NCBI GenBank assembly: GCA_030447305.1 | Contig: JAUJPC010000002.1 | Coordinates: forward strand, 384,927-448,926 | DNA length: 64,000 nt | DNA from: Actinomycetota bacterium | GTDB lineage: Bacteria; Actinomycetota; CADDZG01; JAHWKV01 | Direction: 5' to 3' | In this document: positions 29,953-31,104 of the stretch, piece after piece | Layout of the letters: the number at the start of each line of letters is the position of its first letter | Numbering within the stretch: the first letter of the stretch is position 1 | The notes under the pieces: generated by a model | Databases searched by the model: none | Seen by the model: the letters and a program-made list of their open reading frames with translations, nothing else | What the model was told of the DNA's origin: nothing | Made by a program: the position numbers and the translations under genes

Positions 29953-31104
29953 ATGACACCAAGCTCAGGGCAGGATTTACTCAAACAAGCCAAGGCTGCG
30001 GCGACGGCCCTGCCTCCGGACGAGGTTGCCCGCATCACCGAGGACGACAAGGTGACTCTCGTCGACGTTCGTGAGGGCGACGAGTGGCGCAGGGGCCACC
30101 TGCCCCACGCCGTCCACGTCCCCCGGGGTTACCTGGAGATGCAGGCGGAGTCCAAGGTGCCCGAAAAGGACGCTCCCATCATCGTTTACTGCGCCGGAGG
30201 CAACCGGTCCGCTCTGGCGACCGAGACCCTCAAACAGATGGGTTACACCGACGTGAGGCACATGAGCGGCGGGTTCACCGCCTGGCGAGACTCCGGCCTC
30301 GCGGTGGTAAAGCCCGTCGAGTGGACCGACAGGCAGATGGACCGCTACTCCCGGCATTTCGTGCTGCCCGAGGTGGGGGAGGCCGGACAGCAGAAAATCT
30401 TGCACGGGAAGGTGCTCGTCATAGGCGCCGGGGGGCTCGGCTCGCCGGCTCTGTACTACCTGGCAGCTGCCGGTGTGGGAACCCTTGGAATCGTCGACAT
30501 GGACGACGTCGAGGAAAACAATCTCCAGCGCCAGATCATTCATTCCACCGCCAAAGTCGGCATGAATAAGGCCGAGAGTGCAGGCAAGACCATCACCGAG
30601 CTCAATCCGGACGTGAAGATCGAGGTGCACAAGGAGAGGTTGACGCCCGACAACGTGGACGAGATCTTTGCCGGCTTCGACGTGGTGCTGGACGCCACCG
30701 ACAACTTCGGCACTCGGTACCTGATCAACGAAACCGCTCACAAGTACGGTATCCCGAGCATTTACGGGTCCATCTATCGATTCGAGGGCTACGCCAGCAC
30801 CTTCTGGCCGGCGAAGGGGGGACCGTGCTACCGGTGCATGCACCCGGAGCCGCCGCCGCCCGAGCTGGCCCCCACCTGAGGGGAAGCCGGCGTCCTGGGC
30901 GTGCTCCCGGGAGTGATTGGAGTCCTACAGGCCAACGAGGCGTTGAAGATCCTTGTGGGTTACGGCGAGCCGCTGGTTGGGCGCATCCTGACATTCGATG
31001 CCCAGACGACGGAGTTCGGCGAGCTGAAGCTGCGGAAGGACCCAAGCTGCTCTACCTGCTCGGTGCCGCCTCCGGCGCTCCAGCCGGTTGCGGTTGCTAG
31101 CTAG
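29953..31104 (+). CDS. rhodanese-MoeB/ThiF fusion sulfurtransferase with in-frame TGA at the active-site Cys position (selenocysteine candidate, or nonsense-interrupted)
   Basis: Track ORFs 29953..30879 and 30901..31104 share one frame, split by a single TGA at 30877-79; context CYRC...[22 protein letters not shown] aligns with MoeB CYRC...ALTCVEAGVMAPLIGVIG; rhodanese Cys in VYCAGGNRS; ThiF Gly-rich loop and second CxxC. Confidence 0.6.

Follow-up and report, generated by a model that had tools for sequence, protein, structure and literature searches.

This analysis was concerned with whether the TGA codon at 30877-30879 ends a gene or is translated within it. The DNA analysed, referred to here as the window, is a stretch of 64,000 nucleotides. 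Within it, a 308-residue open reading frame on the forward strand (29953-30879) closes at this TGA, and the same frame runs on for a further 74 codons to a TAG. The whole forms one frame of 383 codons, which includes the single in-frame TGA and is followed by the TAG (Table 1). The preliminary description had treated the two open reading frames as one frame split by the TGA, and our reading of the frames and of the residues flanking the TGA, up to ...CSTC, agrees with it. That description also took TGA to be an ordinary stop elsewhere, and 15 of the window's 30 genes with Pfam support do end in TGA, which rules out a reassignment of TGA in the genetic code. The gene very probably encodes a 383-residue selenoprotein in which the UGA is read as selenocysteine 309 (Sec309), with a SECIS hairpin 13 nt past it as the signal. 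This reading is preferred because the frame is single, the TGA is conserved, Cys and Sec are paired at the site among homologues, the tail after the TGA is under coding selection and the hairpin is specific to the TGA forms.

Table 1. Features of the rhodanese-MoeB gene, with positions in the window.
Feature	Position	Strand	Basis
Complete rhodanese-MoeB gene	29953..31104	+	ORF reading; NCBIfam NF006444, 516 bits (cutoff 449)
Rhodanese domain, aa 22-113	30016..30291	+	Pfam PF00581, E = 7.7e-24
Cys80 codon (TGC), rhodanese active-site loop CAGGNRS	30190..30192	+	Invariant in 13-sequence alignment
ThiF/MoeB adenylation domain, aa 132-367, spans the TGA	30346..31053	+	Pfam PF00899, E = 1.7e-81
First CxxC pair (Cys292, Cys295)	30826..30837	+	Invariant columns; aligned to MoeB CYRC motif
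In-frame TGA, predicted selenocysteine 309, crossover loop	30877..30879	+	Conservation, structure alignment, Sargasso comparison
Predicted SECIS core: 7-bp stem UCCUGGG/CCCGGGA, apical loop CGUGCU	30893..30912	+	Folding, synonymous-site conservation, bSECIS criteria
Second CxxC pair (Cys366, Cys369), 3' of the TGA	31048..31059	+	Invariant columns; kept in 8 of 8 related loci
True stop codon TAG	31102..31104	+	Sequence reading

The predicted product is a PRK08762-type protein, in which an N-terminal rhodanese is joined to an adenylyltransferase of the MoeB/ThiF type. The match to NF006444 (PRK08762) pairs residues 7-371 with profile positions 4-369 of 387 and scores 516.3 bits, which is above the curated cutoff. 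Other profiles scored the read-through protein under their cutoffs: NF005902 (MoeZ) gave 380.6 bits (cutoff 647), canonical MoeB TIGR02355 gave 211.8 (cutoff 376.55) and ThiF TIGR02356 gave 245 (cutoff 275.25). The PF00899 match to the read-through product covers profile positions 1-237 of 238. No rhodanese follows the ThiF domain; the protein stops 14 residues past the second CxxC pair, and its only rhodanese is N-terminal. The preliminary description had been unable to verify that a fusion with the rhodanese at the N-terminus was known, and this arrangement is in fact already curated, in its Cys form, in NF006444.

The 13-sequence alignment of homologues shows no variation in the Cys80 loop, in the GxGxxG motif or in either CxxC pair. 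Cys80 is presumed to be the persulfide carrier of the rhodanese loop and the first CxxC pair is presumed to be a structural zinc site. The second CxxC pair lies downstream of the TGA and thus is made only when the TGA is read through.

The gene appears to be monocistronic, being 81 nt away from the luciferase-like gene upstream and having a convergent open reading frame on its 3' side. At this convergent position (31167-31532, reverse strand) is a conserved open reading frame of about 120 aa, adjoining a cold-shock protein gene, which has an Arg/Gly/Pro-rich tail and no Pfam or NCBIfam match. A counterpart of it is found at the same place in L001, L002, L005 and L008, which are among the related loci described below. 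The window also encodes UPF0182, DivIVA, an RskA anti-sigma factor and a Ser/Thr kinase, a set of genes that looks actinobacterial. The genome is 63% GC, and a syntenic orthologue with 74% identity is labelled Actinomycetota bacterium.

The position of the TGA was compared with solved structures by phmmer, which aligned it to Cys187 of E. coli MoeB (LTCVEAGV), Cys184 of E. coli ThiF and Cys202 of C. thermophilum Uba4. The preliminary description had placed the TGA on the conserved Cys of E. coli MoeB, as found here, and had called this residue the active-site Cys. The latter term does not carry over to E. coli MoeB, in which the equivalent Cys187 is dispensable. It does apply to Uba4-type enzymes: Cys202 of Uba4 is located on the crossover loop and forms a thioester with Urm1, which is then attacked by the rhodanese persulfide (PMC7527816).

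The homologue search covered 5.8 billion proteins, and the clusters discussed here are the best 120. Many homologues with 67-99% identity span just 80% of the query, and 54 of the 120 best clusters stop exactly at the residues ...APT. The full-length relatives read LAP[TS]-C-[SG] at the TGA site, with the Cys present in, for example, P0011, P0016 and P0018. For eight of the truncated forms the DNA was analysed (loci L001-L008); these loci come from different samples, have the gene order of the window and encode proteins with 67-90% amino acid identity. In all eight the same codon is TGA, and a conserved in-frame tail extends from it to the second CxxC pair. A scan of reference genomes, using one genome per GTDB species, gave at least 80 loci. 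Among the 80 loci listed, the codon at the TGA site is TGC in 64, TGT in 11 and TGA in five, the last being from a Nitrospinota MAG, Candidatus Entotheonella, a Methylomirabilota MAG and two Candidatus Poribacteria. No relative above 60% identity was present among the reference-genome matches listed.

Orthologues with TGA and a conserved downstream frame are L001-L008, L038, L039, L056, L075 and L083. In pairwise comparisons, the per-site differences at codon positions 1, 2 and 3 were 0.19, 0.10 and 0.51 after the TGA versus 0.17, 0.12 and 0.49 before it. Thus, the tail evolves as translated sequence. In a neighbour-joining tree, which is without support values and indicative only, the TGA forms appear to make up at least three clusters with Cys forms between them, a pattern in keeping with repeated exchange between Cys and Sec. 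On these alignments, the conservation of the TGA is far beyond what chance would be expected to give. The comparison of orthologues at this codon had been proposed in the preliminary description as a check on its selenoprotein candidate. The clean split between TGA and TGC/TGT at the same codon, the coding selection on the tail and the hairpin all support that candidate.

The preliminary description had also noted a GC-rich hairpin starting about 14 nt after the TGA, at a position compatible with a bacterial SECIS. The hairpin CCUGGG-CGUGCU-CCCGGG was located at 30894-30911, beginning 14 nt past the TGA, or 13 nt past it when counted as a 7-bp stem, and there is a weaker lower stem below the core, in which 30887-30890 pairs with 30917-30920. 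The published criteria for a bSECIS (PMC13188914) are an apical loop of 3-9 nt with an upper stem measuring 4-16 bp, a G among the first two nucleotides of the loop, usually with G or U after it, a distance of 16-37 nt from the UGA to the apical loop, and a minimum free energy (MFE) of -7.5 kcal/mol or lower. The MoeB hairpin agrees with all four. The loop has 6 nt on a stem of 7 bp, it reads C-G-U-G-C-U with the G at position 2 followed by U, the loop begins 20 nt from the UGA, and a 64-nt stretch folds with an MFE of -22 kcal/mol and the core with one of -10 to -13 kcal/mol. The loop variants GGUCCU (L038) and AGUUUUG (L039) retain the G feature. A search against Rfam gave nothing at gathering thresholds, and nothing over 30800-31000 at a permissive E-value.

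Folding energy was considered as a discriminator and rejected as uninformative in this GC-rich sequence, as the hairpin energy was no better than that of shuffles (z = +0.42) and the Cys forms fold about as stably overall. The synonymous sites were informative. The third-codon positions 18, 21, 24, 27 and 30 in the hairpin (peptide GVLGVLPG) have an entropy of 0 in the eight actinobacterial TGA forms and are nearly fixed over all 14 TGA forms, whereas in the 75 Cys forms their entropy is 1.2-1.6 bits. Immediately 5' of the hairpin, positions 12 and 15 have 1.8 bits and are fully variable in the actinobacterial TGA forms. All seven hairpin pairs are possible in 11 of the 14 TGA forms and in none of the 75 Cys forms, in which the commonest count is three. 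In a set of 19 TGA forms, six of them from the Sargasso Sea, 94.7% of cells were paired, versus 36-77% in slid controls. Compensatory covariation was not seen, with no double changes over the 19 TGA forms, because coding constraint leaves few free positions. The structural case for the hairpin is therefore made by synonymous-site conservation, which is confined to the TGA forms, and compatibility with a bacterial SECIS is upheld.

The statement that MoeB-like selenoproteins had been reported before was also correct. A MoeB selenoprotein family was first reported, with 11 sequences, in the 2005 Sargasso Sea survey of Zhang, Fomenko and Gladyshev (PMC1088965), was found again in the 2008 GOS survey (PMC2398784) and is listed in reviews of 2022 and 2026. 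The supplementary sequences of 2005 and the window gene have Sec at one and the same ThiF-domain residue, in the context GGPCYRC..PPP..[ST]. As in the Sargasso MoeB, the TGA of the window falls between the first CxxC pair and the AGV[LM]G motif. Several Sargasso MoeB sequences share the downstream hairpin core GTCCTGGGCGTGCTCCCGGG with the window gene, and the hairpin core GUCCUGGGCGUGCUCCCGGG is common to the Sargasso family and the window gene. Both also have widespread Cys homologues. They differ in that the Sargasso MoeB have a C-terminal rhodanese, with N-termini cut off by the reads, whereas the window gene has an N-terminal rhodanese only, and in that the hosts of the Sargasso MoeB are low-GC marine organisms, whereas the host of the window gene is a 63%-GC actinobacterial one.

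The domain order of the window gene, with the rhodanese first, is that of NF006444 (PRK08762; "molybdopterin-synthase adenylyltransferase MoeB"), which is annotated without selenocysteine and has Cys in most of its members (75 of the 80 reference loci listed). Uba4, MOCS3 and MoeZ(R) have the same two catalytic modules in the reverse order, with the rhodanese C-terminal, and have Cys where the window gene has Sec; Sec309 aligns with Uba4 Cys202. The fold, both CxxC pairs and the crossover-loop Cys of E. coli MoeB and ThiF (C187 and C184; PDB 1JW9 and 1ZUD) align residue-for-residue with the window protein, although these enzymes are single-domain proteins without a rhodanese. Judged by these sequence comparisons, the window gene is a predicted member of the known MoeB selenoprotein family, and what is new is its PRK08762 domain order and its actinobacterial lineage.

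Genes for decoding Sec were searched for near the gene. The 64-kb window, the roughly 8 kb past its right end and the eight related actinobacterial loci contained no tRNA-Sec, selA, selB or selD. In the five reference-genome loci with TGA the scan was for tRNA genes alone, and it gave no tRNA-Sec. A scan of the window for other selenoproteins, as TGA-split open reading frames with coding-like GC3, identified only the MoeB gene and antisense artefacts.

Two sister loci, L002 and L007, encode MoeB proteins about 68-70% identical to that of the window. In both, the divergent neighbour of the Sec-MoeB gene encodes a protein disulfide oxidoreductase (L002 9238-9945 and L007 about 5323-6039, both reverse strand), which matches NCBIfam PDO_seleno_TRX (TIGR02187) with 232 bits (cutoff 185). 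It has TPT-TGA-PHC in place of CPHC (a UxxC motif), and a hairpin GCGCCGU-CGUG-ACGGCGC (7 bp, loop CGUG), identical in the two loci, is located 13 nt past the UGA. In addition, L002 has a peroxiredoxin-family gene (13811-14374, forward strand) with an in-frame TGA at 14039 (FDFSGT-TGA-ANEL), which as called is only the 94-aa C-terminal part. This TGA is at what we take to be the usual redox-Cys position of the canonical motif. Decoding of Sec in this clade gains indirect support from these further genes with TGA aligned to Cys, which lie next door in L002 and L007. A gene for an oxidoreductase of the PDO_seleno_TRX type is absent from the window.

A second TGA-split gene was present in the window. 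It encodes a JAB peptidase-E1 fusion of the ThiF family (48523-49893, reverse strand), which resembles the E1 components of defence systems and is split by a TGA at 48985-48987 (..MDVVIA-TGA-VDTFGAR..). The truncation occurs only in this genome; the other 119 homologues among the matches listed are full length, at about 434-510 aa. The TGA position is Cys in six and Ala in two of eight aligned homologues, and the downstream hairpin has a loop without the G and no SECIS features. On these grounds the JAB-E1 gene was rejected as a second selenoprotein, and its TGA is most likely a nonsense mutation or the mark of a pseudogene. The gene is located in a region (47992-64000) directly past a tRNA-Met (47992-48068), parts of which have a GC content of 0.57-0.60 compared with about 0.63 elsewhere. 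In addition to the JAB-E1 gene, the region contains a capP-like Peptidase_M78 gene (50553-51047, reverse strand), a GajA/AriA-like AAA_15 fragment (53650-54396) and a transposase HTH fragment (58513-59001, reverse strand), and it looks like a mobile or defence island.

Other explanations of the TGA in the MoeB gene were weighed against selenocysteine. The UGA might be read through without selenium, in which case near-cognate or other recoding, perhaps promoted by the hairpin, would insert Trp, Cys or Gly and yield a full-length protein that is not a selenoprotein. The signs that the tail is translated are silent on which amino acid is inserted, and the lack of Sec machinery in the window, the 8 kb beyond it and the related loci scanned is in keeping with such recoding. 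It is nevertheless very unlikely. The TGA alternates with Cys codons only (75 homologues), which is the classic signature of Cys and Sec, the hairpin fits the SelB-type SECIS consensus, recognised selenoproteins share both the site and the hairpin, and in the sister lineages TGA is located at the redox-Cys of two other known selenoprotein families.

It is highly improbable that the TGA is a genuine stop, leaving either a pseudogene or a split gene made up of a 308-aa product and a 67-aa C-terminal open reading frame beginning at GTG 30901. For a pseudogene, a stop exactly at the Cys codon in lineages 67-90% identical and in several phyla, followed by a tail under coding selection, is unexpected, and the short product would end before the second CxxC pair and leave the ThiF fold incomplete at its C-terminal end. 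Gene callers do annotate the gene in this way (for example, MDQ4149346.1 has 309 aa), and the GTG-initiated frame (30901-31104) exists. However, the contrast with the JAB-E1 gene, which is truncated in this genome only and has no SECIS-like loop, also argues against a genuine stop. A further alternative is a sequencing or assembly error, and one base separates TGA from TGC or TGT. An NCBI contig of 667 kb and two Logan assemblies made independently (SRR24765285 and SRR24765286) encode the identical 308-aa product, which refutes such an error, and the same codon occurs in the eight related loci from other samples. The probability left to it is practically negligible, and the check on sequencing error called for by the preliminary description has thus excluded one.

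With the UGA read as Sec309, a role for the enzyme can be proposed by homology with Uba4, MOCS3 and ThiF. The ThiF domain would adenylate the C-terminal glycine of a small sulfur carrier (MoaD, ThiS or CysO-like). Sec309, on the flexible crossover loop, would attack the acyl-adenylate to give an acyl-selenoester; alternatively, it may be the resolving residue for an acyl-persulfide intermediate. The persulfide of Cys80 would supply the sulfur, and the thiocarboxylated carrier would be released for the synthesis of molybdopterin or a related thio-cofactor. Selenium instead of sulfur at residue 309 may allow the covalent intermediate to be formed and resolved faster. The pathway is assigned by homology because the window contains no MoaD, MoaE or ThiS gene. 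In three of the related loci, MoaE is located 2-5 kb downstream of Sec-MoeB (L001 3247-3663, L002 14434-14850 and L007 11712-12140), and the window contains a sulfite-oxidase-type molybdoenzyme (12384-13919). The nearby MoaE genes and the molybdoenzyme would both fit a role in molybdopterin synthesis.

A broader proposal, which we regard as rather unlikely, is that this uncultured Actinomycetota clade runs a selenium-dependent, E1-like sulfur relay, in which an acyl-selenoester or selenenylsulfide at Sec309 is recycled, in the sister lineages, by the divergent Sec-oxidoreductase. If true, the relay would be a dedicated two-selenoprotein module that is new to description.

The annotation of this family is affected directly. 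The 54 clusters that end in ...APT (within P0001-P0117) are recorded in databases at a length of about 308 residues, including MDQ4149346.1 from NCBI PGAP, and in several of L001-L008 the tail was called as a separate "ThiF" open reading frame of 58-72 aa. The truncated "ThiF family adenylyltransferase" entries are a systematic mis-annotation of a selenoprotein. Such database entries break off before the predicted catalytic Sec and do not contain the second of the presumed zinc-binding CxxC pairs or the end of the fold. To our knowledge, no Sec-containing E1-like enzyme has been characterised, and this gene is a candidate for the study of one. Specialists on selenoproteins would find nothing surprising in these results. 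The alignment with Uba4 Cys202 predicts a selenoester intermediate and a turnover faster than that of a U309C mutant. The known MoeB selenoprotein family would be extended to the order with an N-terminal rhodanese, and the main consequence is that a corrected annotation would give an actinobacterial lineage one more selenoprotein.
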